From a virus (lineage: Duplodnaviria > Caudoviricetes): a stretch of DNA of 64,000 nt. Below the pieces are notes generated by a model. The model was not told the origin of the DNA and searched no databases. It saw only the letters and a list, made by a program, of their open reading frames with translations. The stretch lies in IMG/VR virus record IMGVR_UViG_3300033074_001484, positions 96,001 to 160,000 of that record, one strand, 5' to 3'. Position numbers and translations under genes: made by a program. Each line of letters begins with the position of its first letter. Position 1 is the first letter of the stretch. This document shows positions 27,301-45,067 of the stretch, one piece after another.

Positions 27301-28423
27301 GTGTTGGTACTAATGATATCATATTTGATAATGCCACGGACGCATTGTCAAATAATTTATTCGTAGTTTTTAATGTGCCACCCAACGACTTTAGAAGCTC
27401 CATCCGTTCTTCATACGCTTCTATAACTACACGATCCCCGTGTAATTTATCAGTAGCCTTTGCAATTGCAGCAATGTCTAATTCCGTTTTTCCAAGTTTT
27501 CGCAGCCGCTCTATTTGAGCATCCGTAAGATGTCCAATTGAATTATATTGATTAGCCATCTCATCAAGCTCTGCATTCACCTTTTCGATAGCCTTCATGG
27601 TTTGAGTGTACGCAGCACCGGCCAATTTATCACCGGTAGAGATATTAACTAAAATCTCCTTTTCTGGGAACCATTTATACCCGTACATTTCAGCAGCATA
27701 CAATTTAACTTTGTTTGCTAAGATTTTAGCTTCAAGCTCCATTGCTGATACTGCATCTTTTGCAGATGCAGCCAATCGATTAAATCCTTCGTCCACTTCC
27801 ACTGAATCAAATCCAATCTGAATTTTTTTAGATGAAAGCGTATCCATGAAATTATCCATAGACGATATAATATCGTCTATACTTCGCTGATCTATTAATT
27901 CCGGTGCAAATATAGAGTCTACATCAACTGCTCGTAAAATTGCATTATGAACAGCCTCCATCGATGATTCACCTACAATCCCGGCACTTCTATATTGTTT
28001 TTCAAGCCTTTTTATTTCATCCGTTAATCTATAAAATGCGTCAGTTAACGTTTCTGTAAAATAAATCTCGTCATCTATAAAATCTTGCCGAGTTTTTCTA
28101 CTCTTTAGCTCGTCTTTGAATCGTTTATAACCTTTTTCGTCCAACTTGTCAAGCTCTTTGTACTTGTCAAGTAAGTAATCCGTATCCTTTTTATCAAGTT
28201 TTAAGTTCTTTAAAAATTTATTTATAGACCCTTCGTTTATACTTTTCAGTTTTTTGGCATTTTGGATCGCATCCTTTAATGTGTCAGATGAATTGATAAT
28301 ACCACTGTCCAACGCTTCAATTAATAAACGAAACGCCTTGGCATGTTCGTCCATTCGAGTCGCTGATTCAGCCAACTCATTATTTAAACGTATAATTAAT
28401 TTGGGATCAATTTGCTTGGCCAT
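24356..28423 (-). CDS. Tail tape measure protein
   Basis: 1355 aa, helical, Ala/Gly/Leu-rich hydrophobic repeats; position between chaperone and baseplate genes. Confidence 0.88.
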   Translation of the reverse strand: MAKQIDPKLIIRLNNELAESATRMDEHAKAFRLLIEALDSGIINSSDTLKDAIQNAKKLKSINEGSINKFLKNLKLDKKDTDYLLDKYKELDKLDEKGYKRFKDELKSRKTRQDFIDDEIYFTETLTDAFYRLTDEIKRLEKQYRSAGIVGESSMEAVHNAILRAVDVDSIFAPELIDQRSIDDIISSMDNFMDTLSSKKIQIGFDSVEVDEGFNRLAASAKDAVSAMELEAKILANKVKLYAAEMYGYKWFPEKEILVNISTGDKLAGAAYTQTMKAIEKVNAELDEMANQYNSIGHLTDAQIERLRKLGKTELDIAAIAKATDKLHGDRVVIEAYEERMELLKSLGGTLKTTNKLFDNASVALSNMISLVPTPIAEFLGLNEASVRFKSIVDTTFKTFIDGVKKGKTSTEAMSDAINFFGGNVTKVMSGFGALVIAIAGAYKLSSLLSERWKELSKTLGVSLSTAKQIHKNTVDMISASSRYTLNMRELSAIQGEFAETWGLTFTLMDKTALKTSQNLGETVKLFGISEKQAVGLYNEFQKLGADDTLSKTLVRNINYLSELNGLSPQMITQDLLDAAETLQTYYAGYPEDAAKAAIATRKLGVTLKQAGEVAKKMLNIEGFMTDMYELNAMSGIDLSKAFDLGIAGDIEGMSKAIMDSIGSLNEWSNMDYLQRMKLANTLGMSVEEISKSLVLKEKMASMSKDEVDLANKYADKLGDVSMLTDAQVKQKLHELDAADRLNNMFDRFKAILIKSILPLAESFGDLLDGLSPAFEILVGLFRVAGWLLKGILTIVKGILAPFKVLGNMVVGVVDNISSGVDVVTSFANGFDNVKSNITAVFKQMSGFEVLLYSIGGLMGGLWVLKSPLSYLKFGLWPITKSFSILKKMIPSVGGMLGGVFDKIKGITSSKTGGSSIFSSILGDSATDSKKTGASMIDGLKNIGSTLKNGFISMINSIGDVLKTLTTTIGDVFKSLTDAAGEGIENLLSGIGKGLNTFGPKALIGATSLVILASSMYIISEAMGKFASVDWSSIGKATVAMGGLVAMAMLVSKVASNAIVGSVALAIMGASLIPLAYALNMLTDVKWSTLGIAGTALLGLTVALTALGAFVLSGFGAAAILAGAAALAVMGVAIIPLANGLKKLGTSTGILETSLSKFSNLNIDALQSVLSVLISFGKGLYDYPVATSDSIGKSLSTFADIGGGIDATSLSINALAASLVKLSATLEDVNIEKLNMLTSLKSTSQNISASLKVNEKYANMISAMPPPESYTGQGVNIAKTDLSRGVKDRAVGNTPDEVDFDMPSGQELTLERLEVYLKRLVDLFQDYSNRPVVVSVGKDDANRIYRLSKPMSNDR

Positions 28424-28455
28424 TTACACTCCGACACACTTATAAGGTGTTAGGT

Positions 28456-28761
28456 TTATTCTGGTTTATAATCCGATGCCATTTTTCTATATTTCTCATG
28501 CTTTGAGCGTTTGTAATAAAAGTCCGGGTCTTTCCAAAACTCTTTACATGCCGGGTGGTGTGGGTCTTCATGGCATTTCTTAGCAAGTATTTCCGCCATC
28601 TTATCAAAAGCACTCCGATACGATGTGACAGCCTTATTAACTTCAGGGTCTTCATCTACCGCAGTAGCTAACTTTTTCAACGATTTTTTCACAAATGGAT
28701 AAGCGAGAAGCCTTGCAATCTCAACCCATATATTTTCCGTAAACAAATATTTTCTTGACAT
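28456..28761 (-). CDS. Hypothetical late protein
   Basis: AAGGAGG SD and TATTTATT motif upstream. Confidence 0.75.
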   Translation of the reverse strand: MSRKYLFTENIWVEIARLLAYPFVKKSLKKLATAVDEDPEVNKAVTSYRSAFDKMAEILAKKCHEDPHHPACKEFWKDPDFYYKRSKHEKYRKMASDYKPE

Positions 28762-28774
28762 ATAATCCTCCTTA

Positions 28775-28782
28775 AATAAATA
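28775..28782 (-). promoter_or_regulatory. TATTTATW late-promoter-like motif
   Basis: Sense TATTTATT followed by TAAGGAGG. Confidence 0.55.
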
Positions 28783-28807
28783 TCCAACCCATATTAAAAA
28801 TTGAAAA

Positions 28808-29033
28808 TCATCTACGCCGCATTCGTTTTGAACTATTAAGTTTGGATTTATCTTCCTCGGCTTGCTTTATTCTGGTCTCAATAATATCATGCATCTTCAT
28901 GTAATAATATGCCCTCACATTGACAGGCATTGCATGCACATCTGAATATGTAAAACCACCCTCCCCATAAAATACCAAATCAAATATTTGGTTATATACA
29001 GTCGTATTATAATCTACTGTCAGGCCAAAAAAA
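28808..29033 (-). CDS. Tail assembly chaperone C-terminal extension (gpT/E'-like), probably reached by frameshift
   Basis: Overlaps the end of the upstream chaperone in the +1 frame at a T7 run; QIFDLVFYGEGGFTYSDVHAMPVNVR resembles T-type extensions. Confidence 0.6.
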
Positions 29034-29840
29034 GTCCAATCCGATGGTAGGCGTTGTACGAAAGGGTTCCCCGGTGCCCTCATCAATTATTTCAATAGTC
29101 ATGTCTATGTCCGGTTGTATTTCTGAAATATACTGCCGAAGTCTGCGACTATCAAATGCCATTAAATCATTTTCAATGTACATTTTAATAAACCGTGGAT
29201 CGGAATTATCATTAATTGATAATATCATATGTGACAGCCTAACCGTCATTTGGTGATCCGGTGAATCAGGACGTTTATATTTTTTAGCAGCAGCATCCAT
29301 CGACTTTTGATCACCATTAGTCAGCAGTTTAAATTTAATAATGTCACCGCCTCTTGTGGTAAAGTTAAACTCGTTTACCCCCGGAGTATATTTTGATTCA
29401 TCTAATTCTTTTGGTTTAAATTCTTCCAAATTTACTGTAACGGTCTGTTCTCCACCACTTGGGGTTTTAACCTTTGCAGTATACTCTGGACCATATCCAT
29501 ATACACGCGCAGCCAACATAATAGCAGTTTTATCGCCGAGCAACATACTATCATAGTCAATATTAGAGATTATCAGAGATTGAAACAACCTGTCCAACAC
29601 AATACCAGATCGGATATATTGTTCTGTTGTTAAAATATCTTCTTCTTTGGCTGTCATATATTTCATTTCAACCCGGCCAATTGATAATGGATTTTCTGGG
29701 GGATATACTATACCCCGCGATGGTAAATCAACCATTACCGTTGGATATTTAAGATCGCGAGCCGCGTTTGATATGTTCGCTTCATGATCTACGGTTTCAG
29801 TAACCGGTTTATTTGGATAATTTTCCACTACATTACTCAT
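29007..29840 (-). CDS. Tail/baseplate assembly chaperone (gp26/gp51-like)
   Basis: VDLPSRG..YP, MTAKEEDIL, GDK.AIMLAARV..YG, C-terminal DFFWP. Confidence 0.8.
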   Translation of the reverse strand: MSNVVENYPNKPVTETVDHEANISNAARDLKYPTVMVDLPSRGIVYPPENPLSIGRVEMKYMTAKEEDILTTEQYIRSGIVLDRLFQSLIISNIDYDSMLLGDKTAIMLAARVYGYGPEYTAKVKTPSGGEQTVTVNLEEFKPKELDESKYTPGVNEFNFTTRGGDIIKFKLLTNGDQKSMDAAAKKYKRPDSPDHQMTVRLSHMILSINDNSDPRFIKMYIENDLMAFDSRRLRQYISEIQPDIDMTIEIIDEGTGEPFRTTPTIGLDFFWPDSRL

Positions 29841-29852
29841 AACTTCTCCTTT

Positions 29853-30047
29853 TTATCGTAATAACCATTTTGAATTAATCCTATCTACCACCATTGTTAT
29901 GAACGCGGTGAGTTCATGTTTAGGAATCCCTCGCTCATCAAGATATGTATCAAAAATATTATCCCGATGGCCTATCTTCAATACATCAGATATAAACGCA
30001 TCAACATCGTTCATTGTAATTTTGGTGGGATTTTTACTCATACTCAT
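29853..30047 (-). CDS. Hypothetical protein
   Basis: Short ORF with TATTTATT upstream (30065-30072). Confidence 0.6.
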   Translation of the reverse strand: MSMSKNPTKITMNDVDAFISDVLKIGHRDNIFDTYLDERGIPKHELTAFITMVVDRINSKWLLR

Positions 30048-30095
30048 ATAATCTCAATACTGTGAATAAATATAAAGAACTCGCGTGAAAATGTA

Positions 30096-30587
30096 TCACT
30101 GCTTTGTTAAAATTGCATAATCATATGCTATAACCAATGTAGCAGTTAATATATCGTCAGATGACCAATCCAACTGACCAAAATCGATGTTGGCTATTAA
30201 TGGATTAACCAATTCAAACTTATAAACATTAGCATCCCAATCCAATTTCTTAACAAATATAGAAATACTTGTCGGCGAATAATCCGTTTTATACTTATCA
30301 ACCCCCGATTCTATATCTTGATGTAACAATAACCAATCCCATAATTTCATATTTGAGGCAGGTTCCTCCAACTGATACAGTACCATTGAAATATCATTCC
30401 ACCGGGTTTTACCCTTCACCTTTATGTATGTGTTCCCATAATCTACAGTAATTGGCGTTTGTTCAAGGCTTGGTAATTGAGTAGATTTGGCGTTTGTCAT
30501 AAAATCGCCAGTATCCAACGTTGAAAATTGTACCTTGAATTGGTATTGTAAAATGGGCTTATATGCAGATGGTTCAAGACGTGCCAT
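30096..30587 (-). CDS. Tail tube protein paralogue 3 (gp19-like)
   Basis: KVKGKTRWNDI, FGQLDWSSDD, AYDYA. Confidence 0.85.
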   Translation of the reverse strand: MARLEPSAYKPILQYQFKVQFSTLDTGDFMTNAKSTQLPSLEQTPITVDYGNTYIKVKGKTRWNDISMVLYQLEEPASNMKLWDWLLLHQDIESGVDKYKTDYSPTSISIFVKKLDWDANVYKFELVNPLIANIDFGQLDWSSDDILTATLVIAYDYAILTKQ

Positions 30588-30598
30588 ATATAATTCTC

Positions 30599-31084
30599 CT
30601 ACACATTAAAATATTCCGCATAATCATACGTCAACGTTAAACTTAATTCAATAATATCATCTGATCCATAATCCAAACTACCCCCTGATAAATCAGATAT
30701 AAATGCGCCAATAAGTTTCCATCGTCCAATAGGTACTATTGTCATAGCATTCATCATTAATAGATTTATATCCTCTTTATATTCATCCGCATACTTAATT
30801 TCTCCAGACGAAATTACCATATGTTTTTTATTAAAATAACTATAGACCTCTCGTGCAGTAATACCTTCAAATTGATAACATGTAAGTGTTATCGGTGCCC
30901 ATTTCGGACGACCCATTATATTAATATATGTCGGACCATAATCCACTGAAATAGGATTAGTGGCAACTTTTGGTTGTTCTGCCCCTCTCGCATATATAGC
31001 GGATGCCTTTATATTATTGGATATCAAAATATAGCGATGACTAAGTTGAGGATGAAATAATTCACTTTGGGCTACACGCGGCAT
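30599..31084 (-). CDS. Tail tube protein paralogue 2 (gp19-like)
   Basis: W.PITLTCY, WKLIGAFI, LDYGSDD, TYDYA. Confidence 0.85.
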   Translation of the reverse strand: MPRVAQSELFHPQLSHRYILISNNIKASAIYARGAEQPKVATNPISVDYGPTYINIMGRPKWAPITLTCYQFEGITAREVYSYFNKKHMVISSGEIKYADEYKEDINLLMMNAMTIVPIGRWKLIGAFISDLSGGSLDYGSDDIIELSLTLTYDYAEYFNV

Positions 31085-31099
31085 TTGCTCCTTATTTCT

Positions 31100-31107
31100 A
31101 ATAAATA
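31100..31107 (-). promoter_or_regulatory. TATTTATW late-promoter-like motif
   Basis: Directly after a terminator hairpin, before an AAGGAG SD. Confidence 0.55.
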
Positions 31108-31138
31108 GGAAAGGGGCATGATTTTTATTTCACGCCCC
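31108..31138 (-). terminator. Probable intrinsic terminator
   Basis: Sense GGGGCGUGA-loop-UCAUGCCCC followed by UUU; the G-U wobble pairs only in the minus-strand RNA. Confidence 0.6.
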
Positions 31139-31166
31139 CTTCTTCTACAGTCCCGAAAGCCATATT

Positions 31167-31373
31167 CTACACAGGATCAGGTGTCCTACCCTTTTTAAAT
31201 CCAATAATTGTTGTTATGGCCCCCACTAATACAAATATGGCATCCCATATGGCATCAAAATTTTGAATTAAATATTCATAGACGCCAAGCCATTTAGTCA
31301 AACCAAAAAAAACTAAAACAGAACCCAGTCCAGTAATTATGTGTCTGACAAGTGATTTTGTGTTTACATTCAT
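31167..31373 (-). CDS. Small membrane protein, holin-like
   Basis: Two hydrophobic helices (LVRHIITGLGSVLVFFG; AIFVLVGAITTIIGF) and basic C-terminus. Confidence 0.5.
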   Translation of the reverse strand: MNVNTKSLVRHIITGLGSVLVFFGLTKWLGVYEYLIQNFDAIWDAIFVLVGAITTIIGFKKGRTPDPV

Positions 31374-31392
31374 GATAAATACCTTTTTTATG

Positions 31393-31872
31393 TTAGGAAT
31401 ATGTCATATAATCATATGATACAGTAATTTCGCATTGTACAACATCATCGGTTCCCCAGTCCAAAGGTCCCCAATCTGCTGATGCTATAAATGCACCAAC
31501 TAATTTGAATGTACCTACTGGTGTTGAACCATCCGGGGCAAGAAGCATCAACTGCATGTCATGCTTATACACAGGAGCATATTGATCAACCGCCCCTTCA
31601 ACATTTTGATGATCATTGTTCAAATAATCCCACAATTCCTTCGCAGTAATACCTTCAAATTGATAACACGATAATGTAATATCATTCCACCGGGTTTTAC
31701 CCTTCACCTTGAAATAATAATTAATATGTTCTACATTCACTGGTGCGTTATCAAAAGACGGTTGCTGAGAACTTCGTGCGTATATACTCGCCCCCGGCAA
31801 CTTAGATGTTTCCATTTTATATCTAAATTGCAATGTTGGGTGGTGAGCATCAGGTATTACTATTCTTGGCAT
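31393..31872 (-). CDS. gp19: Tail tube protein (gp19-like), likely the major tube
   Basis: Immediately after sheath; HIN..KVKGKTRWNDIT, LVGAFI, LDW, SYDY. Confidence 0.9.
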   Translation of the reverse strand: MPRIVIPDAHHPTLQFRYKMETSKLPGASIYARSSQQPSFDNAPVNVEHINYYFKVKGKTRWNDITLSCYQFEGITAKELWDYLNNDHQNVEGAVDQYAPVYKHDMQLMLLAPDGSTPVGTFKLVGAFIASADWGPLDWGTDDVVQCEITVSYDYMTYS

Positions 31873-31893
31873 TGTACATTCTCCTTATTTTTA

Positions 31894-31901
31894 TATAAAT
31901 A
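31894..31901 (-). promoter_or_regulatory. TATTTATW late-promoter-like motif
   Basis: Sense CTATTTATA followed by an AAGGAG SD. Confidence 0.6.
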
Positions 31902-31918
31902 GTGTAACACCACGTTTT

Positions 31919-33742
31919 TTATTCCTGAGCGTCGAATGGGAACAATGCACCAGTAGGTAATACAATGAAGTCAACGATCAAGTATTCAACCGTTTTTGCA
32001 GGTTTCAAGAATATTGACGCCCTCATTTCATTTCGGTCAATAACATCGGGTGTATTATTTCTTTCAGAAATTTCGATTCTATAATCATACAACCCTTGTT
32101 GGTTTTTAACCCTTCGGAAATATGGCTCAACAATCTCAATGAATCTTGCACGTGTCTCCACTGTGTTGTTTTCAAACACAAGGGTTTTAGTTGCCCATGC
32201 CACAAATCGTTTTGCATCTATTAATAAACGACGAACATTAATACGGTCAAGTGCAGATGCTTTTTTCTGTAAGGTTTTTTGACCCCAAACTACCACCCCA
32301 GACCGTGGGAATGTTGCAATTGGATTGACACTACGTGTGTATAAATTATCACGATCATTTTGTGTCATCAATCGTTCTGTTTGCACTACTGTGTCGAGAA
32401 CACCACGATTCAATCCGGCAGGTGCATACCAAGGATGTGATACCCGGTCGTTGAATGAATACACTCCGGAAATCACAGAACTTGGTGGAACCCAACAGTT
32501 TCTACCCAAATCTGGATCAGGGATCATTACCCAAGGATAATACATAGCAGCATAATTTGTATTTCTGGCTTCTGCTGCTATCTGTGCCTGTCCAACTGTA
32601 GCACCTTTTAATGTAGGGTCGACAACTAAAAATATATCGCCGCGATCTTCGCACATATTAATGGCATATGAAACGATTTGCGATTGTTCGCTCGCCCCCT
32701 CAGTTATACCCGGTAAGAATAACAGATTAATATCGTATTGGTCTTTATTCGCAAGAATATCAATAGCATCTTCATACGCGGTTTTACCATACGATGCAGA
32801 TGCAACATTAAATCCTTGTGTATTGTATGCCCAAATATTTTCATACATAGCGCGAGGGTGCGTCACATTACCATCACTACCTCCAGAGAATGCACCGGAT
32901 GCTATTGCCGGTAATGAGCCGGATAACGCACCATCCCGAATTAGACCATTTGAATTCAAATAATTAAATGTAGAATTTATCCCCTCTACTCTCAAGAACC
33001 TTGATCTGTTAGGGTATGATCCAGACCGTTCAAGATATGGTTCACCACTCGAATCATAACGAAGTGTCCATGTCATATCACCAATAACCTTCGCAATATA
33101 ATTATTTGACGTTGGGTCAAGTGATAGTTGTGAATATTGTTCAATTACGATTCGACGATTACCAGTATCATCACCACGCCGGATAAGCAAATCAAACGTG
33201 CCGCGATTTGGATTAACCGCTGAAATCTCCCATCTTATGTTATGCTTCGATCCACTGACAAGTAATCCCGATGCTCCTAAATCTGATGCAACATGAGACC
33301 CCGATATAGCACCTGCAACTTGTCCCGAATTATAAACTTCACCATCGGATAATGATACTAATTTAAACGCCATATTTGCAGCAGTATATGGACCATCATC
33401 TTCCAACGATTTAGATGTTATTACATATGAGTAAGCAGGTTGGTAATTACCGGCTAACACGCGAACAACGGTCATCACTTCCCCATATCTCAAATATTCC
33501 TGAACACAATATGATGTGAGATATTTGTACTCCTGTTCATACACTCCCGACCCTGAAATGAAAACATCCCCAAACCAACGTTGATATTCGGAATATGTTG
33601 ATACCATTGTCGGTACCATTGCCGGTCCCCGTACCGTTGGTCCAATTACAGCACCACCAACTTCTGGAATTTGTAAAGGCAGGTATGACAAGTCAACTTC
33701 TCGTGTATATACACCCGGAGATACAAACGTATTCTTACCCAT
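31919..33742 (-). CDS. gp18: Tail sheath protein
   Basis: SPGVYTREVD, WYAPAGLNRG, WGQKTL, RINVRRL, FENN, P.K.VE. Confidence 0.97.
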   Translation of the reverse strand: MGKNTFVSPGVYTREVDLSYLPLQIPEVGGAVIGPTVRGPAMVPTMVSTYSEYQRWFGDVFISGSGVYEQEYKYLTSYCVQEYLRYGEVMTVVRVLAGNYQPAYSYVITSKSLEDDGPYTAANMAFKLVSLSDGEVYNSGQVAGAISGSHVASDLGASGLLVSGSKHNIRWEISAVNPNRGTFDLLIRRGDDTGNRRIVIEQYSQLSLDPTSNNYIAKVIGDMTWTLRYDSSGEPYLERSGSYPNRSRFLRVEGINSTFNYLNSNGLIRDGALSGSLPAIASGAFSGGSDGNVTHPRAMYENIWAYNTQGFNVASASYGKTAYEDAIDILANKDQYDINLLFLPGITEGASEQSQIVSYAINMCEDRGDIFLVVDPTLKGATVGQAQIAAEARNTNYAAMYYPWVMIPDPDLGRNCWVPPSSVISGVYSFNDRVSHPWYAPAGLNRGVLDTVVQTERLMTQNDRDNLYTRSVNPIATFPRSGVVVWGQKTLQKKASALDRINVRRLLIDAKRFVAWATKTLVFENNTVETRARFIEIVEPYFRRVKNQQGLYDYRIEISERNNTPDVIDRNEMRASIFLKPAKTVEYLIVDFIVLPTGALFPFDAQE

Positions 33743-33759
33743 TAATCATCCTCTTTTCA

Positions 33760-33767
33760 TATAAATA
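33760..33767 (-). promoter_or_regulatory. TATTTATW late-promoter-like motif
   Basis: About 18 nt upstream of the sheath start. Confidence 0.6.
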
Positions 33768-33793
33768 TGTAAAAAATAATTCAAAATACAAAT

Positions 33794-34669
33794 TCAATAT
33801 CTAATATTTCTTCTTAGATTTTTTCGCAATACATGTGACGGTTCCTCTGTCATATGTCGCCGATCTGATCTCATTGAAGTGTCATTAATAAAAATATCAT
33901 CTGCTTCGTTTTCACCTACAATCTTCACCGTTTTTATAGAGAACTTTTTTTGCATTGTTTGTCTACTATACTGAAACTCATCAAGTAAATAACCATCCAC
34001 TGTTATTGGTATTGTAGCCTTTACAATTCTTTGTTCGCCGGGCAAAGATGTGACTTCATCCGTCAATGACCCCATGTAAACTCTAAATTTATAGTAATCG
34101 CCCCATAAATGATTATTGACTGAAAATAGCGATTGTGCTACTATATTTAAATGTTCTACAAAGTCACACCATATAGTAATGTCGTAATCAACTTTTACAA
34201 ATCTTGGTATATTCACCAAATAATATTCATACGAATGTTTCCGCAAAATTTGACCGGTCACCCGATCATATTGCATGTTCATTGACCGGTATGGGTATAA
34301 TTTACGTGTTGGTGTATAATTATTAAGGTTTACATGCGGCAATCTATCATCATCATTAACACCCATACGCTTCAACCCAATAACAGGTGATATAACCTTA
34401 TTATTAAGGTCCCGCATAAACCCATTACGACGTATTTGATTGAATTTTTCACCATCAAGATATATTACCGGAACTTTAACCGCATGACCATCTTCAACCA
34501 CAGTAGGTTTAATTTGTGAGTTCAACCCATATAACACAGCATAATCAATATCATATAATGTGACTGCCGGAACACGTACTATATCATCGTCCCGGCGCAT
34601 TTCGTTTGCACGATTGACATCTTCAGATGTTCGCCCGGATTGGTATGGAAATATTAATGGAGCGTTCAT
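33794..34669 (-). CDS. Tail terminator / sheath stabiliser (gp15-like)
   Basis: DIDYA, VPVIY..GEK, P.I...R, P.FV.VDY.I.IW; upstream of sheath. Confidence 0.65.
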   Translation of the reverse strand: MNAPLIFPYQSGRTSEDVNRANEMRRDDDIVRVPAVTLYDIDYAVLYGLNSQIKPTVVEDGHAVKVPVIYLDGEKFNQIRRNGFMRDLNNKVISPVIGLKRMGVNDDDRLPHVNLNNYTPTRKLYPYRSMNMQYDRVTGQILRKHSYEYYLVNIPRFVKVDYDITIWCDFVEHLNIVAQSLFSVNNHLWGDYYKFRVYMGSLTDEVTSLPGEQRIVKATIPITVDGYLLDEFQYSRQTMQKKFSIKTVKIVGENEADDIFINDTSMRSDRRHMTEEPSHVLRKNLRRNIRY

Positions 34670-34672
34670 GCG

Positions 34673-35845
34673 TTACCTTACATATATTTTCAAAGGAACC
34701 CTCGACAATTTTTGTTTTAACATATCATCTTCAGCTTGCGACCTTTCCAATAATGCTTGTCTGGAATAGGTGTCTAACATCTCCTTCAATTCTGTTAACA
34801 AAGATTCTTGCTCAGATTTACCATCAGACCGTAGTGTGTCTCCATCAAGTTGGACTTCACCGTCAGGAATTGGTATAGAGTTATATTTACTACGCACATT
34901 TCCCAACATTTCTTTAACCAATGCTAATGTATATTTTCGTATCCATTGGCGGGCAACATCATTTAGCCTACTATATTTCAGGTTGTAATATGGCATATTT
35001 GCATGTCCTGTTATTTTACCCGGACCATTCTCATCTGATAATTCTGAATTTGTACCTCCCGGTAATGTATCATCATCTAATGTGTATAAAAACCATACCT
35101 TGAATTCCTTATTTGGAATCGGTAATATTCTTAAACGATTATTAGTTAATTGGAACCCATATCCAGACTTCCTAATTGTGTCGTTAAATTCAATAGCTTG
35201 TAATCGCAATGCATCCCACCACATTGGAACCATTGTAAAATTTATTGGTGGAGACATATTACCCCACCCAAACTGATCCATAAAATTGGCAGATGAAAGC
35301 CCAGTACCCATGAACGGATCATAATATTTAACAATTGATGGGGGTGTATCGTGGAAAATTCTTCTAATTGTAAATTGATTTACAGTAAAGTCACCCGCTT
35401 CAATATCAGCATTCATTAAATCATATATTTGCTGTCCGGGTTGAACGGTTATACTACCTGAATAATAAGTTAAATATCCGCCCGTACCTGCTTCTGTACC
35501 ATATTGCTTTGCCAATTTGAATACAGACCGCAGATTGGGTTGCACCACCACATCTGAATAATTAATAGAACTCGTTGGGTATCCTATTAAATGGAGTATG
35601 TTATCTCTCGCCTGATATGTATTGACTTGGTTAGCGTATTCAGTAACAGCCTCTTCAAATGCTGTAAAAAAATTAATATCCTGTAATTCTATACTGACAA
35701 TAGGGTAGCCCAATCGACGCGCACAGTATTCTGCTATCTTTTCAGCATGATCAGCAAATACAGGGTCCGAATCATAAAACCCAAATGGGGTATCACCGGG
35801 GTAGAACGATGCTGAACCGGGCCATATTGGAACGTCTGTTGCCAT
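34673..35845 (-). CDS. Neck protein (gp13-like)
   Basis: RRLGYPIVSIEL, WIRKYTLALVKEMLG.VRSKY, V.LDG. Confidence 0.85.
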   Translation of the reverse strand: MATDVPIWPGSASFYPGDTPFGFYDSDPVFADHAEKIAEYCARRLGYPIVSIELQDINFFTAFEEAVTEYANQVNTYQARDNILHLIGYPTSSINYSDVVVQPNLRSVFKLAKQYGTEAGTGGYLTYYSGSITVQPGQQIYDLMNADIEAGDFTVNQFTIRRIFHDTPPSIVKYYDPFMGTGLSSANFMDQFGWGNMSPPINFTMVPMWWDALRLQAIEFNDTIRKSGYGFQLTNNRLRILPIPNKEFKVWFLYTLDDDTLPGGTNSELSDENGPGKITGHANMPYYNLKYSRLNDVARQWIRKYTLALVKEMLGNVRSKYNSIPIPDGEVQLDGDTLRSDGKSEQESLLTELKEMLDTYSRQALLERSQAEDDMLKQKLSRVPLKIYVR

Positions 35846-35859
35846 TCATATCCTTTATC

Positions 35860-35867
35860 AATAAATA
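35860..35867 (-). promoter_or_regulatory. TATTTATW late-promoter-like motif
   Basis: About 15 nt upstream of the neck gene. Confidence 0.55.
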
Positions 35868-35875
35868 TAACCTTA

Positions 35876-38219: not shown

Positions 38220-38839
38220 TAAGATGTTATTTTTATGACTAACGTTGCGCGTGTTATCGTTGACACAGAATCAACTCTAAACCTAAAAACATCCTCCGCA
38301 TTTACACTTGTAGTCCATGATGTTAGTGTAGTATCATAATTAATCCTTGCATTTGACAATGTGGGTTTTTCGGTACCTGTTATAGTATCTGCTACGGTGG
38401 GTGGATGATTAGCAATTGTATCTTTCCACACATCAATGACAATAGACCCTGATTGATCTGCTGTCAAATACCATCCATTAATTGTACCTGAAAAAGGCAC
38501 TATAATTTCACCCTTGATCCCTGTTGTAATTTCAGAACCGCCACCATCCACAGTTATACCAATTGATCGTATGGCGGATGCAACCACCCCAGATAAACCG
38601 CTACCATCTCCAATAAATGATCCCGAAAATGATCCTGTTAATTCTGCACCAGACCCAATATGGCCGGGTCCGACAAACGTACTACCAAATCCCAATCCTT
38701 GAAATGAATGCGCTTGTATTGATCCCGGCAAATCTACTACTATACTGCCGCCTTCAAGTGTTATACTACCAGAATTAACCGTTAAACTGTTAAGTGCGGC
38801 GTTGGACCCTGATAGTATTAATTTTTTCCACTTCGACAT
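38219..38839 (-). CDS. Fibre/decoration protein
   Basis: Shares WKK.I.SGS and GSF.GDGSGL modules with 39251..40537. Confidence 0.6.
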   Translation of the reverse strand: MSKWKKLILSGSNAALNSLTVNSGSITLEGGSIVVDLPGSIQAHSFQGLGFGSTFVGPGHIGSGAELTGSFSGSFIGDGSGLSGVVASAIRSIGITVDGGGSEITTGIKGEIIVPFSGTINGWYLTADQSGSIVIDVWKDTIANHPPTVADTITGTEKPTLSNARINYDTTLTSWTTSVNAEDVFRFRVDSVSTITRATLVIKITS

Positions 38840-38863
38840 ATATCAATTTTCTAACAAAAAATA

Positions 38864-39040
38864 TCAAGATTCAGTAGAAATCTTTTTATCAAAGTTTGTC
38901 TTTGCCGCGTACAACTTTGTTAAAATACCGGTAATAAATGGAGCATCAATTCCATGTATTTGTATTCGATGTATGGCATCTGTCAAAAGTTGAAGCTCCT
39001 TTTCATTTAATGAAACCCTCACAGTACTATCAGTTGTCAT
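38864..39040 (-). CDS. 58-aa hypothetical protein (below ORF-track cut-off)
   Basis: Manual translation MTTDSTVRVSLNEKELQLLTDAIHRIQIHGIDAPFITGILTKLYAAKTNFDKKISTES; resembles the adjacent ORF. Confidence 0.7.
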   Translation of the reverse strand: MTTDSTVRVSLNEKELQLLTDAIHRIQIHGIDAPFITGILTKLYAAKTNFDKKISTES

Positions 39041-39043
39041 ATG

Positions 39044-39235
39044 TTATTTTTTATAAAAATTTCGCATTGTTTCCAATTTATTAAATATATCATATACCAA
39101 TTGCACATCTTTACCTTTGAACGCAGTCTCGCTCAATATTGCAATGATTAAGTCACACTCATCCTCAGTAAGTGGTGGTGGATATGATGATTTCAACGAT
39201 TCAGTATTTGATGGTTTTGTAGTTAATAAGCCCAT
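39044..39235 (-). CDS. Small hypothetical protein
   Basis: LTEDECDLIIAILSETAFKGKDVQLVYDIFNKL. Confidence 0.7.
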   Translation of the reverse strand: MGLLTTKPSNTESLKSSYPPPLTEDECDLIIAILSETAFKGKDVQLVYDIFNKLETMRNFYKK

Positions 39236-39250
39236 TATATATAGTTTGAA

Positions 39251-40537
39251 TTATGCATAAATATAAACATCCCCATTCTCAATACGAATATTACCATTTT
39301 TTTGATAAATAGCATTGTCGGCTTGGCCCCCGTCTACATCAACAACCGCTGCCAAATATGCGTCCGGGGCAATCGCAGTTGCTTCGCCACTTAATTTTGT
39401 AATGGTTTGTAATCCAAATCGTTCTGCTGAATCGTCCCACCCAAATCCAACACCTGTAAAATCCGACTCTGTTTGAATTACAAAACCACCATCGCCAGAT
39501 GCCGATCCTGAATTAAGTAATATGAATCTATCCTCAACCGCTATATTTGTAACATTTTGATTAATGACTGTACCCAACACAGTCAAGTTACCCCCAATAA
39601 TAACATCATGGCCGAATTGAGAACCTGAAATTGTAAGCATATTAGTCGATGAATTATATGTAAAATCTGCATCTGACGTTACAGTATCCCCATCGCTCCA
39701 AAATGTTACCCGTGTAGACGCCCCAGAACCATCTACTAATGAAGACCCCCACACTCTCGAATCAATAGTACGTGTTCCCAAATCTCCCGCAGCAGACCAT
39801 ATCGCTACCGTATCCGTGGTTAGTGCCGGGGCTGCTGTTAAATTCAATCCAGAGCCTGTTATATGGCTTGTAGCGGTAAAATTACCTGTAAGTGAGAGCG
39901 TACTACCATCAAATGTTAAATTTGCTTCCCCATTTACACTTGTGGAATCAACGGATGTTATAAGTCTATTGTTGGCTGCATTTGTATAGGATGTTATCGC
40001 ACCCGTGGGCAATCCTGTCAAACCGCTCCCGTCACCTGTAAATGATCCTGTAAATGATCCTGTTAATCGGGTAGCAGCGACTGTACTACTGTTTACAATA
40101 GTACCTGTAAGTGTTAAATTTGTAAACTGTGGGCTATCACCAGTTCCAAGCCCCAATGATGTACGTGCTGTTGCTCCAGACTCAGCAACCCATGTTGTAT
40201 TGTTACCAACAATTATATTACCATCTGTAGGAGTTAATAAACTAATATCATTAAGACGAGACCCTGATGATATATTACCACCAATGTTAAGCGTAACACC
40301 AGTTCCAAGAATAGCACTTGTTCCACCAGCAACAATCACCTTCCCATCACCCGAATCAGCTATATTACCACGTGCAACTGATGTTATAGCTGATGTACCA
40401 GCACCTAATAAAACCTGTCCAGATGATAAAGTAGCTACGCCGGTACCACCACTACCAACCGGTAATGCAGTGTCTAACGATAACGATGATAGTTCCGCTG
40501 CTGATCCGGACATTATCACTTTTTTCCATTGTGGCAT
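39251..40537 (-). CDS. Fibre-like virion protein
   Basis: LPVGSGGTG, GLGTGDSPQF, GEANLTFDG, GNLTVLGT..VEDRFILLN fibre motifs. Confidence 0.75.
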   Translation of the reverse strand: MPQWKKVIMSGSAAELSSLSLDTALPVGSGGTGVATLSSGQVLLGAGTSAITSVARGNIADSGDGKVIVAGGTSAILGTGVTLNIGGNISSGSRLNDISLLTPTDGNIIVGNNTTWVAESGATARTSLGLGTGDSPQFTNLTLTGTIVNSSTVAATRLTGSFTGSFTGDGSGLTGLPTGAITSYTNAANNRLITSVDSTSVNGEANLTFDGSTLSLTGNFTATSHITGSGLNLTAAPALTTDTVAIWSAAGDLGTRTIDSRVWGSSLVDGSGASTRVTFWSDGDTVTSDADFTYNSSTNMLTISGSQFGHDVIIGGNLTVLGTVINQNVTNIAVEDRFILLNSGSASGDGGFVIQTESDFTGVGFGWDDSAERFGLQTITKLSGEATAIAPDAYLAAVVDVDGGQADNAIYQKNGNIRIENGDVYIYA

Positions 40538-40556
40538 AAAAACTCCTATTATTTAC

Positions 40557-40564
40557 AATAAATA
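40557..40564 (-). promoter_or_regulatory. TATTTATW late-promoter-like motif
   Basis: Sense CTATTTATT followed by AGGAG. Confidence 0.55.
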
Positions 40565-40577
40565 GTTTATTAAGTAA

Positions 40578-41195
40578 CTAAACAGCCCCTATATATAAAT
40601 TACTTCCACTATATACAAATGCCCCAAGTTCTACCGTTGGCAAGGTATCAAAACTATGTAACACAAGCAACCCTTCACCATTTATCTTGGCAATTAAAGT
40701 TGAACCACTATAAACTTCCAACGAATTAGTAAGAGGATCGTCATGGGTAATAATTAAACTACCTGAAACCTGTACCCCTCCATTAACACCATATATGGTA
40801 GATAATATTGATCCGGTTGGAGATATAAATGAAACACCATCAACCCCAACATTTAATTTTTTCCAAGGTAAATTCGTTGTACCTAATGAAAACACGCTGG
40901 AACTGTACGGGGTTAGTGAGCTTGATATAGTATTAGTAAATGCAATTGAATGTGAAGTTTCCCACACTAAAGATGATACTTGATAAAATGGTGTTAATAA
41001 TTGACCCGTTATATCCCCAATAGGTCCCCTTATCCCCTGTATACCTCTTTCAATTACAGTAACAATTCTGTTAGGAGCTTCGATATATTGGGTATCACTT
41101 TGCTCATTTTGATATACGGTGACCTTACGTATCTCTGACGTTGTAGGCACCACCGTTGATGGGGCTGAATATTCTGTAACAATGGTTGTACTCAC
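40578..41195 (-). CDS. Virion fibre/whisker-like protein
   Basis: Short collagen-like GIQGIRGPIG, SLGT...W, several SGS. Confidence 0.6.
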   Translation of the reverse strand: MSTTIVTEYSAPSTVVPTTSEIRKVTVYQNEQSDTQYIEAPNRIVTVIERGIQGIRGPIGDITGQLLTPFYQVSSLVWETSHSIAFTNTISSSLTPYSSSVFSLGTTNLPWKKLNVGVDGVSFISPTGSILSTIYGVNGGVQVSGSLIITHDDPLTNSLEVYSGSTLIAKINGEGLLVLHSFDTLPTVELGAFVYSGSNLYIGAV

Positions 41196-41590
41196 CGAGT
41201 GACATTCCTACTAATTTTAACCTTACCTTCAAGAACACGTACTACATATTCAGATACACCTGACCCACTATATAATTCAATATCATAATAACCGTCTTGG
41301 AACGTAAACAGGCTACTACTGTATGCACTTATTTGGATTGAAAACGACCCAGATGAGCGTGGTAATGTTACCGATTCACTTACAGGCGTCATATTGATTC
41401 CCGTACCATCTTCCGTAATAGTTGTTGTTAATCTGGCATATACTGTAGATGACTCGATTTGCGGTCGAATATGCATACGCGCCTCATAACCTGTCAAATT
41501 TATAGGTGTACCATCCGCATTGGTATACAATATGCGGGTATTAAAGGTACTACCTTGCTCAATTATAAATGTATGTCTACCTGCTGCCAT
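41192..41590 (-). CDS. Virion structural protein (BppU-N/Ig-like adaptor)
   Basis: IEQGSTF, PINLTGY.ARM.IR, YYDIEL, RVLEG.V. Confidence 0.6.
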   Translation of the reverse strand: MAAGRHTFIIEQGSTFNTRILYTNADGTPINLTGYEARMHIRPQIESSTVYARLTTTITEDGTGINMTPVSESVTLPRSSGSFSIQISAYSSSLFTFQDGYYDIELYSGSGVSEYVVRVLEGKVKISRNVTR

Positions 41591-41601
41591 ATTATATCCT
41601 A

Positions 41602-42267
41602 CTAACTATTATACAACAACCTCAATATTTCATCAATTGCCTCGTGTCTATAATTTTGAGTTAATGTTGCAATATAAACATATGCAGAGTCTCTTAATTT
41701 GGGAATGTCATGTATAGCAGACGTATCTGTATATTTCAAATCTATTTGTCGATTATCACCACATAATATCATTAAACTATTTTTACCCAAACGACCCAAT
41801 ACCATTGTCAATTGCTGCTTAGTTAAATTTTGAACTTCGTCAATAATACACACACTATTAGTGAATGTTCGGCCACGGAAATGACTCAATGACACCAATT
41901 CAATTAAACCTTTATCCTCACACTTCTTTAAGTATTCCGGATGATTGTATACCTGACGCATGTTATCTCTGATAGGTACTAACCAAGGCTCCATTTTTTC
42001 TTCCAATGAACCGGGCAAAAACCCATTATCCTCGGTACCCACAGTTGGTCTGGTTATTACAATCTTTTCAACCTCTCTTTTAAACAATTTATCCAATGCT
42101 ATTTGAACTGCGAGCAGGGTTTTACCTGACCCTGCTTGTCCTAATATAAATGATACAGGATGATTTAATATATGTCCCTTTGCAATTTTTTGTTCATCTG
42201 ATAATTGGATATTATATGTTAATTCAGTTTTAGGTTTTCTCTTGTTTAAATTACTTTCCATCTCCAT
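41602..42267 (-). CDS. phoH: PhoH family ATPase
   Basis: GQAGSGKT, ITRP, GFLPG, FRGRTF, IIDEVQN, RLG, GD..QID. Confidence 0.95.
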   Translation of the reverse strand: MEMESNLNKRKPKTELTYNIQLSDEQKIAKGHILNHPVSFILGQAGSGKTLLAVQIALDKLFKREVEKIVITRPTVGTEDNGFLPGSLEEKMEPWLVPIRDNMRQVYNHPEYLKKCEDKGLIELVSLSHFRGRTFTNSVCIIDEVQNLTKQQLTMVLGRLGKNSLMILCGDNRQIDLKYTDTSAIHDIPKLRDSAYVYIATLTQNYRHEAIDEILRLLYNS

Positions 42268-42279
42268 ACAAACTTTTTA

Positions 42280-42287
42280 TATAAATA
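42280..42287 (-). promoter_or_regulatory. TATTTATW late-promoter-like motif
   Basis: Between the capsid terminator and phoH. Confidence 0.6.
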
Positions 42288-42296
42288 GTATTATAT

Positions 42297-42327
42297 AACA
42301 CAAAGGCCACCCAAAATTTGGGCGGCC
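42297..42327 (-). terminator. Intrinsic terminator after the major capsid gene
   Basis: Sense GGCCGCCCA-AAUUU-UGGGUGGCC-UUUGUGUU. Confidence 0.75.
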
Positions 42328-42352
42328 CTCATGTAATTTACCATTAGTAGAT

Positions 42353-44014
42353 TTAGATTAAGTGCAATCCTTCTACATATAGTTTTGCGTAGAATTCCGG
42401 ACGTGTTACTTTCTTTCCGTAACGTGTCATCACGCCCTTCCTTGGTGTGAAGTTATCCGGATCATACAGTAATGGTGTCATCATAAGCGGAATATATGGT
42501 GAATACACCGCACCTGTTTCAAGGTAATTACTTCCCCGGAATCCGACAAGGATCAGATTTTCGAGCATGTACGGGTTTTTATAAACATCCCATTGATTTT
42601 TGATACCACCAATCTTTTGTACTCCCATTGCAAATTTTGCCTGAGTCCCATCCGTATCAGCAGCAAATCCCGGTATAGATTCCAAAATAGTTGCAATTGT
42701 CGGTGAAGTGACTATAAAGTTTGCACCGCCCCGAAGGGTTAATTGGTGAATTTTATTAGACAACTTCTGCAATTTAGTACCAATTGTCTGGAACCATGTA
42801 CCTTGATTATACGCTGTCACGTTTGCAGCAGATAATTCAAATGCAGACCCATTGTGCTGATATCCAATGCGAGTTGACCAGTAGTCAACTGTCGGTGCTT
42901 CGGATATAATCATATCAAGAATTTCAAGATCAATTTCCATAGAAATGTACTCACTTAAAATTCCAGTCAATTCCGCCTCGGCATCGATGTTCTGATACGC
43001 ATTGATATCTTGTGCAAATTCTGGTGTCCATACAGCTTTCAACTTACGAGTTTTAGCCACAATAGGCTCACTACGCATTTGAAGATCGATTTCTGGAATA
43101 TCAAGCTGTTCACGTGCGCTACCTGCTTGTGTTTTTCCTTCTTCAAAATCACCCCGCGTTACGTCTGTCGGCTGCTTATGGTAATTAACAGTAATCGTCT
43201 GTGATCCAGTAGCAGCGGCAGAACCAGAAACTACAAAGGAAATCAGACCGGTTGTTGAATTATACTTAGTGAATGCCTGATACACATCGTGTACAAGTGT
43301 TCCACTCGCATTTGACAGTGTAAACGCACGAACACCATGTGGATCAAATCCAGAAATGGCATCCTTGTGAATTATCACTTTATGAATTCGTGATCCACCA
43401 ACCAATAATGATTGCGAGAACGCGCTATCGTGGTTATAATCCGCACTCGCTAATGAACCAGTTGTCCATGTAGTTGAATTTGCAGACGATCCACCAACCA
43501 ATGCTGATGACGAATAATCATTTATCGTGTATCCAAATCGACCTGCCCCATACAGACCTTCGGTTGGAGTAGCATCCCCATATGATGCAGCAGTTCCCCG
43601 ATTTGCATCGGTCACACCCATCAACGAATCGTTCTGTGAATCTTTACCAGCACCAGTGTTAAATCCGGGCTGCCCAGTAGAATACTTAAACTCAAGCCAA
43701 AACACAAGACCGGATGGTAAATTCATTGGCTGTACACTTACGAATTCTTTAGCTGAAATCTCGGCAAAAATTCTACGCACAAGCGGCAATGCTATACCAG
43801 ACCACTCTTCACTATTTGCAGACGTACCAGTGCTATTCGCTTCTGTTACCAACTGCTTTGCTTGGTTTTCGAGCATGACGGCCATCATCATCTTGTCCCG
43901 AACCTTTAAATCTTCAAGAAGGCCAGTTTTTTCCCACTTTTTTGCAAGTGCAACGGCTCTGGCCCTTTGATTCGCATGATCGCCTTGCGGCAGTAAGCTA
44001 TTTACATTAGACAT
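42353..44014 (-). CDS. gp23: Major capsid protein (T4 gp23 family)
   Basis: KW..TGLLE, LENQ, PLVRR, VQPM..PSGL.F, RKLKA.W..E.AQD, Y.PY.PL, TRYG. Confidence 0.97.
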   Translation of the reverse strand: MSNVNSLLPQGDHANQRARAVALAKKWEKTGLLEDLKVRDKMMMAVMLENQAKQLVTEANSTGTSANSEEWSGIALPLVRRIFAEISAKEFVSVQPMNLPSGLVFWLEFKYSTGQPGFNTGAGKDSQNDSLMGVTDANRGTAASYGDATPTEGLYGAGRFGYTINDYSSSALVGGSSANSTTWTTGSLASADYNHDSAFSQSLLVGGSRIHKVIIHKDAISGFDPHGVRAFTLSNASGTLVHDVYQAFTKYNSTTGLISFVVSGSAAATGSQTITVNYHKQPTDVTRGDFEEGKTQAGSAREQLDIPEIDLQMRSEPIVAKTRKLKAVWTPEFAQDINAYQNIDAEAELTGILSEYISMEIDLEILDMIISEAPTVDYWSTRIGYQHNGSAFELSAANVTAYNQGTWFQTIGTKLQKLSNKIHQLTLRGGANFIVTSPTIATILESIPGFAADTDGTQAKFAMGVQKIGGIKNQWDVYKNPYMLENLILVGFRGSNYLETGAVYSPYIPLMMTPLLYDPDNFTPRKGVMTRYGKKVTRPEFYAKLYVEGLHLI

Positions 44015-44031
44015 TTTATCATCTCCATTTT

Positions 44032-45051
44032 TTATAATTCAGCAGCTTTTATTCCTGCAATAACTTTCCATCTATCTGCAAAATCATATTGAGTTTTCAC
44101 AGGAGCACGATTTTCAGTTATTGGACGTGTCGCAACCTTTTTAGGATTAGCAATAGATTTAGATTTGCTACGTGCTTTTGTACCGCTTGTAAATTGCCCT
44201 GAAAGGGTTTTGTAAATCATACTCGCATCATTTACAGTTTTAGAGCGATCAAATGCTTCCAATACTTTTTCTTGTTGTGACTGAGTTAGTTTATAGTTGC
44301 GAATTATTTTTGTCGCATACATCAACTTTGCATTCAGCAAGTTTACCTCGTTAATTGCTTTCCGCAGCACACTGTTCGCACGTGTTGCCTCTTGTAATTT
44401 ACGAGTTAATTGTGCAACTTCCGATTGGGTAGATGGTTTAACTGGATGTCGTTTTTCAGTATTCTTTACTGTCTTACGATTATTAGAGTTTTCTCGCATT
44501 TCACGCTTCATACCCCTAATAAGACTTTCGATAACATCTTCATCTTCTTCACCACCTAAATCCTCGCCTCCTAATTCTTCCTCGCCTCCTAAATCATCAA
44601 GTGGTTCTTCTTCACCACCTAAATCCTCGCCTCCTAAATCATCAAGTGGTTCTTCTTCACCACCTAAATCCTCGCCTCCTAATTCTTCCTCGCCTCCTAA
44701 ATCTCCAAAGTCAAAATAATTAAAATCGAACTCACCATCTTCCTCACCCTCAAGTTCAGAAATCATTGAATCCAATTCCGTCTCACTTATTTGAAAATCA
44801 TCATCAAGCTCTTCGGCACCTTCCTCCGATAAATTATCCGCAGGTGTGCCATCTTGTCCATCATCCACATAATCTTCTTCGGATAGTTCCAAATCATCAC
44901 CAGATAGTTCATCTTCCTCCGCAATTTTGGCGGACACCATCCTCTGAATTTGTGGTTGGAATGTTTCTGCTATAGCCGCCTTCGCATTTTCAATTGCAAG
45001 TGTTCGGACTCTGTTAGCATCTGCAATGGCTTCATCTAATAATTTACCCAT
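44032..45051 (-). CDS. Prohead core scaffold protein (gp22-like)
   Basis: Highly acidic coiled coil directly upstream of gp23; LLDEAIADA, EVNLLNAKL, RW..IAGI. Confidence 0.8.
   Translation of the reverse strand: MGKLLDEAIADANRVRTLAIENAKAAIAETFQPQIQRMVSAKIAEEDELSGDDLELSEEDYVDDGQDGTPADNLSEEGAEELDDDFQISETELDSMISELEGEEDGEFDFNYFDFGDLGGEEELGGEDLGGEEEPLDDLGGEDLGGEEEPLDDLGGEEELGGEDLGGEEDEDVIESLIRGMKREMRENSNNRKTVKNTEKRHPVKPSTQSEVAQLTRKLQEATRANSVLRKAINEVNLLNAKLMYATKIIRNYKLTQSQQEKVLEAFDRSKTVNDASMIYKTLSGQFTSGTKARSKSKSIANPKKVATRPITENRAPVKTQYDFADRWKVIAGIKAAEL
44546..44703. repeat. Coding tandem repeat (DLGGE/DLGGEEE/PLD units) in scaffold
   Basis: Nucleotide-identical blocks tcttcaccacctaaatcctcgcctcctaa (x3) and atcatcaagtggttct (x2). 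Confidence 0.9.
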
Positions 45052-45067
45052 GTTGTTTTCTCCAAAA

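Follow-up and report, generated by a model that had tools for sequence, protein, structure and literature searches.

The DNA analysed here, hereafter the window, is a stretch of 64,000 nucleotides (nt) from a tailed-phage genome (IMG/VR record IMGVR_UViG_3300033074_001484, positions 96,001 to 160,000) with 70 called genes, all on the minus strand, and a GC content of about 36%. Shine-Dalgarno (SD) sites in this window are concentrated on the late virion genes, the replication genes mostly start behind A/T-rich leaders without such a site, and a gene for the ribosomal protein bS21 lies among the head genes. Relatives that carry bS21 are almost all rich in SD sites, and most of those that lack it are poor in them. 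The scarcity of SD sites in bS21-less relatives suggests, without proof, that the phage bS21 lets ribosomes read SD sites. A ribosome switch that depends on the phage bS21 is, judged from these sequences, plausible, testable and unproven, and we would put it somewhat short of an even chance.

Shine-Dalgarno sites on virion genes

Each start was scored by the duplex energy of the anti-SD sequence CACCUCCUUU with positions −21 to −3, and gene classes were assigned from the annotation, not from the leaders. The median energy is −6.5 kcal/mol for virion genes versus +0.3 kcal/mol for replication and other early genes (Mann-Whitney P = 0.0008), which bears out the difference between gene classes that the original prediction, made from the sequence of the window alone, had proposed. 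Pairing at or below −6 kcal/mol occurs at 21 of the 70 starts (30%) versus 13–15% of internal control positions (P = 0.0014). Starts inside 28423–45063 are also stronger than those outside (median −5.9 versus −2.8, P = 0.027).

The motif AGGAG has 37 copies on the sense strand. Six of them lie at −16 to −4 of starts, where 0.53 would be expected (P = 1.9e-5), an 11-fold enrichment at the SD position. These six stand 4–12 nt before their starts, all within 28.4–40.6 kb, and are the ones originally listed: AAGGAGG before 28761, AAGGAG before 29840, 31084 and 31872, and TAGGAG before 30587 and 40537. The weaker cores that had been named were found as well, namely CGGAG before the tape measure gene, GAGGA before the sheath gene, AAGGA before the neck gene, and TGGAG before the capsid and putative scaffold genes. 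The genes and leaders concerned are the following.

24356–28440, minus strand: tape measure gene (start 28423) with its CGGAG leader; phrog_4372 and phrog_167; −6.6 kcal/mol.

28762–28782, minus strand: TATTTAT box, then AAGGAGG 5 nt before a gene of 101 amino acids (aa; 28456–28761); −11.1 kcal/mol, the strongest canonical AGGAGG-type site in the window. The product has no PHROGs or Pfam match.

29841–29852, minus strand: AAGGAG 5 nt before the baseplate-hub-like gene (29007–29840); phrog_150; −8.9 kcal/mol.

30096–31872, minus strand: three tail-tube paralogs (starts 31872, 31084 and 30587; phrog_4542, E about 1e-23 each) and an open reading frame (ORF) of 68 aa.

31919–33767, minus strand: tail sheath gene (start 33742) with its leader, a TATTTAT box followed by GAGGA; phrog_23, E = 2e-70; −6.3 kcal/mol.

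34673–35867, minus strand: neck or head-tail adaptor-like gene (start 35845) with its leader, a TATTTAT box followed by AAGGA; phrog_211; −5.5 kcal/mol.

39251–40564, minus strand: gene for a Gly/Ser/Thr-rich protein of 428 aa (start 40537) with its leader, a TATTTAT box followed by TAGGAG.

42353–44030, minus strand: major capsid protein gene (start 44014) with its TGGAG leader; phrog_138, E = 7e-66; −6.9 kcal/mol.

44032–45070, minus strand: putative scaffold gene (339 aa, start 45051) with its TGGAG leader; −6.4 kcal/mol. The product matches no PHROG or Pfam family, and the label rests on its position between protease and capsid.

The cores are complementary to CCUCC (AAGGAG(G), GGAG, GAGGA), the duplexes range from −5.5 to −11.1 kcal/mol and the spacing from core to ATG is 3–8 nt, as for canonical SD sites. 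The sequence evidence supports the view that the virion-gene sites behave as real SD signals. A/T-rich leaders without an SD site were confirmed for PolB, gp32, primase, DUF4494, portal and bS21, and DnaB has such a leader too; the SD-less early genes have no plausible SD-led alternative start. The prohead protease gene (start 47369) had been placed in the same group, wrongly: AAGGGAG stands 13 nt from its ATG, and among close relatives an SD site precedes 77% of the orthologous genes.

The sites had been described as marking high-copy late genes. Their concentration on late virion genes holds, their link to copy number only in part: the low-copy hub and tape measure genes have strong sites, and two of the six AGGAG-led genes are of unassigned role. 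Hence, "virion genes" is a better label than "high-copy genes".

Runs of G (GGGGGG, GGGGG, GGTGGGTGG) stand 5–10 nt before the starts at 53223 (large terminase, TerL, whose leader has the GGGGGG run), 62856, 17134, 19577 and 46295 on the minus strand, where neighbouring genes overlap or lie almost end to end. They may act in coupling, by G-U pairing with the anti-SD.

Relatives with and without a phage bS21

We collected 360 capsid-centred loci from IMG/VR and two cultured phages, with the capsids of the window and four relatives as queries. The bS21 genes were detected by an iterated hidden Markov model on six-frame ORFs. Loci that span the interval from protease to capsid and have non-identical capsids were counted, which left 167, and a locus was called SD-rich if at least 25% of its starts pair at or below −4.4 kcal/mol. 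The contrast between bS21-positive and bS21-negative relatives that the original prediction implied is present: 77 of 78 loci with bS21 are SD-rich, and 75 of 89 loci without it are SD-poor, that of the cultured Flavobacterium phage immuto among them. For the first 135 rows the association gives a Fisher P of 3e-27. A threshold of −6 kcal/mol separates the two groups less well than −4.4 kcal/mol, and L239 is a bS21-positive locus, yet SD-poor.

The position of the motif agrees with this division. The SD core 4-mer has a sharp peak at −12/−11 of the start in 1310 genes of bS21-positive loci, and its profile is flat in 1040 genes of bS21-negative loci. Over whole contigs, 26–43% of starts pair at or below −4.4 kcal/mol in six genomes with bS21 versus 3–6% in three without. 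The latter include a 142-kb contig and the complete 160-kb genome of phage immuto (vB_FspM_immuto, MW353176), neither of which has a PF01165 match anywhere; immuto, with no bS21 in its complete genome, shows SD-like pairing (≤ −4.4 kcal/mol) at just 6% of its starts. Immuto and phage Mel-JY01 (PP395634) belong to the same capsid family as the window (52.5% and 54.5% identity) and share its T4-like order of head and tail genes.

Among relatives whose bS21 has an aromatic residue at the signature position described below, the sites are gene-specific. SD sites precede the capsid gene in 45 of 45 cases and the scaffold gene in 32 of 32, with 77% for the protease, 9% for TerL and none of 31 for the portal. 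The motif is kept while the flanking leaders differ widely, which points to selection on the motif itself.

The phage bS21 and its SD-less gene

45543–45767, minus strand: bS21 gene, 74 aa; Pfam PF01165, E = 4e-11, 42.8 bits versus a cut-off of 27.

45768–45790, minus strand: A/T-rich leader of the bS21 gene (…AATTTAAATATATAAGTT ATG), no SD site; +0.8 kcal/mol.

The bS21 gene lies inside the TerL-portal-protease-capsid block on the same strand. The best solved-structure matches of its product are the bS21 chains of 9i5v and of 7JIL, the latter the Flavobacterium johnsoniae ribosome, with residues 19–70 corresponding to chain residues 5–56. Y68 aligns with Tyr54 of F. johnsoniae (7JIL chain z), which makes it a Tyr-type bS21. 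It differs from the F. johnsoniae protein by an N-terminal extension of about 14 residues, by KRS where that protein has KPS, and by a shorter C-terminal tail. We considered whether the phage protein is set apart by a more basic C-terminal part and dropped this idea, since chain 9i5v has about as many basic residues. Across the family (n = 105) the Tyr column holds Y in 60 members, F in 8, H in 4, R or K in 29, L in 3 and V in 1; the wider family thus includes 29 basic-type proteins without the Tyr.

The signature Tyr is uniquely conserved in Bacteroidia and stacks on A1534, where the tail of the 16S rRNA turns into a masking pocket (PMC7797042, PMC9976891). In F. johnsoniae, a strong SD site boosts translation only if bS21 is depleted, C-terminally truncated or mutated at Tyr54, and AGGA has no effect; ribosomes lacking bS21 initiate faster on mRNA with a strong SD site and more slowly on SD-less mRNA (PMC9976891). 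The host rpsU genes have exceptionally strong SD sites across Bacteroidota (PMC9976891). The bS21 gene of the window is not preceded by an extended SD site of the rpsU type (below −13 kcal/mol).

In close relatives, the bS21 leaders are SD-less in 34 of 35 cases, the remaining one having a weak match (−4.4). Only 5% of the aromatic-type bS21 genes have an SD site (n = 58; 95% without), versus 36% of the basic type. A bS21 gene without an SD site fits a protein that needs to be synthesized by unmodified ribosomes. The leaders of the relatives' bS21 genes (L001–L080) are conserved and A-rich; in many relatives that have otherwise diverged, the ATG follows immediately on (A)AATAAGTTAT or AAAGTTAC.

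A promoter-like box upstream of the sites

TATTTAT occurs 12–33 nt before 13 starts in the window versus 1.3 expected (P = 1.5e-9), and six of these starts belong to SD-led genes. The box resembles the T4 late promoter, TATAAATA, and probably serves this phage group as its late promoter. Examples of TATTTAT(A) on the minus strand are at 28776–28782, 31895–31901, 33761–33767, 40558–40564 and 42281–42287. The box also precedes the non-virion genes for PhoH (42267) and ribonucleotide reductase (14648). No gp55-like late sigma factor was recognised among the genes of the window, for which no dedicated test was run.

The proximity of the box is one of two grounds for asking whether the motifs are translation signals at all, or composition effects, relics of a T4-like ancestor or part of a late transcription element; the other is that the leaders are purine- or A-rich, so that AGGA and AAGGA arise easily. 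We judge this extremely improbable. The position peak is fixed to the start codon and not to the box, whose distance from the ATG varies between 12 and 33 nt. AGGAG is enriched at the SD position as described above, and the capsid site is kept in all 45 relatives despite a diverged flanking leader. The late genes of the Flavobacterium phage immuto have the same box with no SD site after it. The SD site is therefore an element of its own, placed between the start codon and a promoter-like box that both phages share, and no part of the box. As a predictor of SD sites in relatives, the box was rejected (SD sites in 37% of boxed genes versus 48% of unboxed ones).

The Bacteroidota −7 promoter element TAnnTTTG is not enriched in the window (96 observed versus 85 expected). 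Exactly 4 nt separate it from the ATG at the primase gene (start 62470; element at 62475–62482) and at the gene starting at 485 (490–497), both on the minus strand, where it would give nearly leaderless mRNAs. With just these two cases of TAnnTTTG-N4-ATG, the element was dropped as evidence for the host.

Proposed ribosome switch

Bacteroidia ribosomes normally ignore SD sites, and we infer a Bacteroidia host for the phage of the window. In such a host, bS21, bS18 and bS6 would together form a pocket that keeps the anti-SD tail of the 16S rRNA sequestered. The phage bS21 would be made late, by ordinary ribosomes, from its SD-less mRNA, and would replace the host bS21 on part of the ribosome pool. 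Its N-terminal extension and remodelled N-terminal half might then make the anti-SD available or stabilize its pairing with mRNA; the remodelled N-terminal part would be the obvious candidate for a changed function. The SD-led virion mRNAs would outcompete the SD-less host mRNAs and the low-copy phage mRNAs, and the net effect would be a translational amplifier for abundant virion proteins. That phage bS21 turns SD-blind Bacteroidia ribosomes into SD-reading ones, and that SD sites serve the phage as marks which reserve this benefit for its abundant virion mRNAs, is a possibility that we hold to be a little less probable still than a bS21-dependent switch as such.

Publications on phage bS21 and on the ribosomes of F. 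johnsoniae provide the background. Phage bS21 is co-transcribed with late structural genes, its N-terminal part would lie on the mRNA side of the anti-SD, and it has been proposed to enter host ribosomes late and favour phage mRNAs (Chen et al. 2022, ISME Commun 2:31, PMC9723584). In F. johnsoniae, as in the switch proposed here, the status of bS21 decides whether strong SD sites are read, so that ribosome composition alters mRNA selection (Jha et al. 2021, PMC7797042; McNutt et al. 2023, PMC9976891).

Host and alternative explanations

The type of bS21 and the A-rich SD-less leaders favour a Bacteroidia host without proving it. Upstream of the SD-less genes of the window, adenine peaks at −13 to −11 and at −3; immuto shows these peaks as well, Mel-JY01 does not. 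The bacterial affinity of the window bS21 rests on the solved structures and the literature. One capsid relative, immuto, has a Flavobacterium host, and one exact CRISPR (clustered regularly interspaced short palindromic repeats) spacer from a Flavobacterium genome matches a bS21 phage of this group (Chen et al. 2022, PMC9723584). The caveat that the host might instead belong to an SD-using lineage is weaker for Chlorobia, in which most mRNAs are SD-less and bS21 lacks the Tyr (McNutt et al. 2023, PMC9976891).

A number of observations weigh against a bS21-dependent switch. The first concern the evolutionary history of the link. The tree of capsids shows only 5 changes in the presence of bS21, of which 3 fall on supported branches. 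In two or three contrasts SD richness changes along with bS21; in the others it stays as it is, and it never moves in the opposite direction. A sign test on the contrasts is not significant (P about 0.25), there being too few contrasts to reach significance. With so few evolutionary changes, a shared cause such as the host lineage could explain the link. Phages with and without bS21 would then infect different hosts, those of the bS21-positive phages would read SD sites to some extent, and bS21 would be kept for ribosome supply or to counter a translation-stalling defence. The strongly clade-bound presence of bS21 fits such a confounding effect, and so do the 29 basic-type proteins in the family, one carrier of which, Mel-JY01, recorded on Microcystis, has SD sites on most of its genes. 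The two closest long contigs (G004 and G005) carry SD sites on 44–50% of their early genes; the split between early and late genes is significant in the window and two other relatives and not in these two. We nevertheless consider an explanation by host lineage unlikely. The bS21 of the window has the Tyr described as unique to Bacteroidia and best matches Bacteroidota ribosome structures, and the Flavobacterium spacer matches a bS21 phage of the group exactly. The early genes of the window and two relatives are SD-less, which is odd for an SD-reading host, and their leaders are A-rich like those of the Flavobacterium phage.

The assignment of the host itself is indirect. The host is known by inference only, and a tblastn search of GenBank phages with the window bS21 gave no match; a search for homologous proteins gave back the query alone. 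The same search with a more typical family member gave weak matches only (uncultured huge phages, one fecal metagenome record and one Enterococcus phage). Hence, no cultured phage with this type of bS21 was found among GenBank phages.

The remaining objections concern the protein and the strength of the sites. The caveat that the phage protein retains the Tyr stands: Y68 corresponds to Tyr54, which helps to mask the anti-SD in F. johnsoniae, so that simple unmasking of the anti-SD is not expected. Many sites are weak (AGGA or AAGGA), while AGGA is inert in F. johnsoniae reporters. One clade without bS21, to which L274, L280, L284, L287 and L293 belong, has weak AAGGA(G) sites that are confined to the capsid and scaffold genes and is a partial counter-example to strict coupling of SD sites and bS21. 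A complete 297-kb genome of this clade (L372) has no bS21 and an SD fraction of 0.20 at −4.4 and 0.05 at −6 kcal/mol.

The retained Tyr, which suggests that the phage bS21 masks the anti-SD like the host protein, and the weak sites of this clade would also suit a second explanation, in which SD sites work without the phage bS21. Host shut-off would leave ribosomes free of bS21 that read SD-led mRNAs as they do host rpsU, and the phage bS21 would top up ribosomes for the SD-less phage genes or have an unrelated role. The faster start of bS21-free F. johnsoniae ribosomes on strong SD sites (PMC9976891) agrees with it. Immuto and other bS21-less relatives should then carry SD sites as well, yet they do so at 3–6% of starts, and the universal capsid and scaffold sites exactly where the phage bS21 is present would be left unexplained. 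We regard this explanation as quite improbable.

Comparison with known phages and ribosomes

Chen et al. (2022) described bS21-encoding phages to which they assigned Bacteroidetes hosts, and the phage of the window belongs to this group. As in their freshwater myophages, bS21 lies on the coding strand in the terminase-portal-protease-capsid block, has an aromatic residue at the Tyr54 position and is divergent in its N-terminal half. In that study, SD sites and promoters of the phages were not analysed, and no feature that selects mRNAs was named (PMC9723584). What the present analysis adds is the SD pattern specific to gene classes, the absence of this pattern from bS21-less relatives and the SD-less leader of bS21. 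The literature searched contained no account of late genes with SD sites in phages that carry bS21.

In F. johnsoniae, SD reading results from the absence of bS21 and autoregulates one gene, rpsU, with an extended SD site below −13 kcal/mol. Here, unlike in F. johnsoniae, a viral paralog of bS21 is present, its gene is SD-less, and dozens of virion genes have sites of 5–7 nt with −5 to −11 kcal/mol.

Among phages of the same capsid family, the TATTTATA boxes recur in immuto. The bS21 of Mel-JY01, a phage recorded on the cyanobacterium Microcystis, is of the basic type and lacks the Tyr; its best matches are from Firmicutes and Escherichia coli. SD sites precede most genes of this phage, its own bS21 gene included. 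The gene (17188–17412 in L082) encodes an ordinary basic tail, …NAARKRQRK, with no Tyr. At least two kinds of bS21 thus occur in the capsid family, whose hosts probably belong to more than one phylum.

In phage T4, SD sites stand on nearly all genes of all temporal classes, and its host reads them. The phage of the window resembles T4 in the A/T-rich box 12–33 nt before late starts, the short leaders and the T4-like virion module. Unlike in T4, with SD sites in all classes, the sites are here largely confined to virion genes, and the host group normally ignores them. Both the phage group and the ribosome biology had been described before; what is new, and testable, is their connection.

Other genes of the window

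By PHROGs and Pfam annotation of its proteins, the window belongs to a T4-like myophage, and it is the virion and replication core of a large phage of this kind. Its genes follow one another on the minus strand in the order primase, SbcC-like, large terminase, portal, prohead protease, bS21, putative scaffold, major capsid, PhoH, neck/adaptor, tail sheath, three tail-tube paralogs, baseplate-hub-like, tape measure, gp25-like baseplate, gp32-like single-stranded DNA-binding protein (SSB), UvsX, exonuclease, DnaB, ribonucleotide reductase, SbcD-like, PolB, DUF4494 and two glycosyltransferases. The starts of the head genes are TerL 53223, portal 51615, protease 47369, bS21 45767, scaffold 45051 and capsid 44014. 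A megablast search of GenBank phages with 20 kb of the window gave no match, and the closest IMG/VR capsid is only 67% identical to that of the window.

49795–53223, minus strand: large terminase and portal genes; phrog_2 and phrog_213.

8532–19175, minus strand: replication block (gp32-like SSB, UvsX, exonuclease, DnaB, ribonucleotide reductase, SbcD-like, PolB), annotated by PHROGs; leaders mostly A/T-rich without an SD site.

The tail-tube paralogs stand in tandem (159, 161 and 163 aa), each with its own AGGAG (31881–31885, 31088–31092 and 30596–30600). TATTTAT boxes precede the starts at 31872 and 31084, and a terminator-like hairpin (31142–31109) lies with the 68-aa ORF between the first and second paralogs. 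The 428-aa product (39251–40537) matches no PHROG or Pfam family and has homologs in the closest relatives only. It contains Gly/Ser/Thr-rich repeats (…TGSFTGSFTGDGSQLTGL…) and a conserved N-terminus, MAEWKKV…SGS, and is probably a fibrous virion protein. A 65-aa ORF (7623–7820, minus strand) matches only the first half of DUF4494 (profile positions 1–63 of 139) and shares 4 nt with the next ORF (6574–7626, 350 aa). A split domain, a gene fusion or a frameshift may account for this.

Significance

Among ribosomal proteins, bS21 is the one most often encoded by phages. The SD sites on virion genes are a concrete candidate feature for the published proposal that phage bS21 selects phage transcripts, which named none. 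As reporters and purified ribosomes of F. johnsoniae already show that bS21 controls the reading of SD sites, the idea is directly testable. If true, it would account for the way in which phages boost the production of structural proteins in SD-blind bacteria. A viral ribosomal protein would then change the rule by which a ribosome selects mRNAs. The ribosomal protein that phages most often encode would thereby have a defined function, and ribosome specialization imposed by a virus would have a clear natural case.

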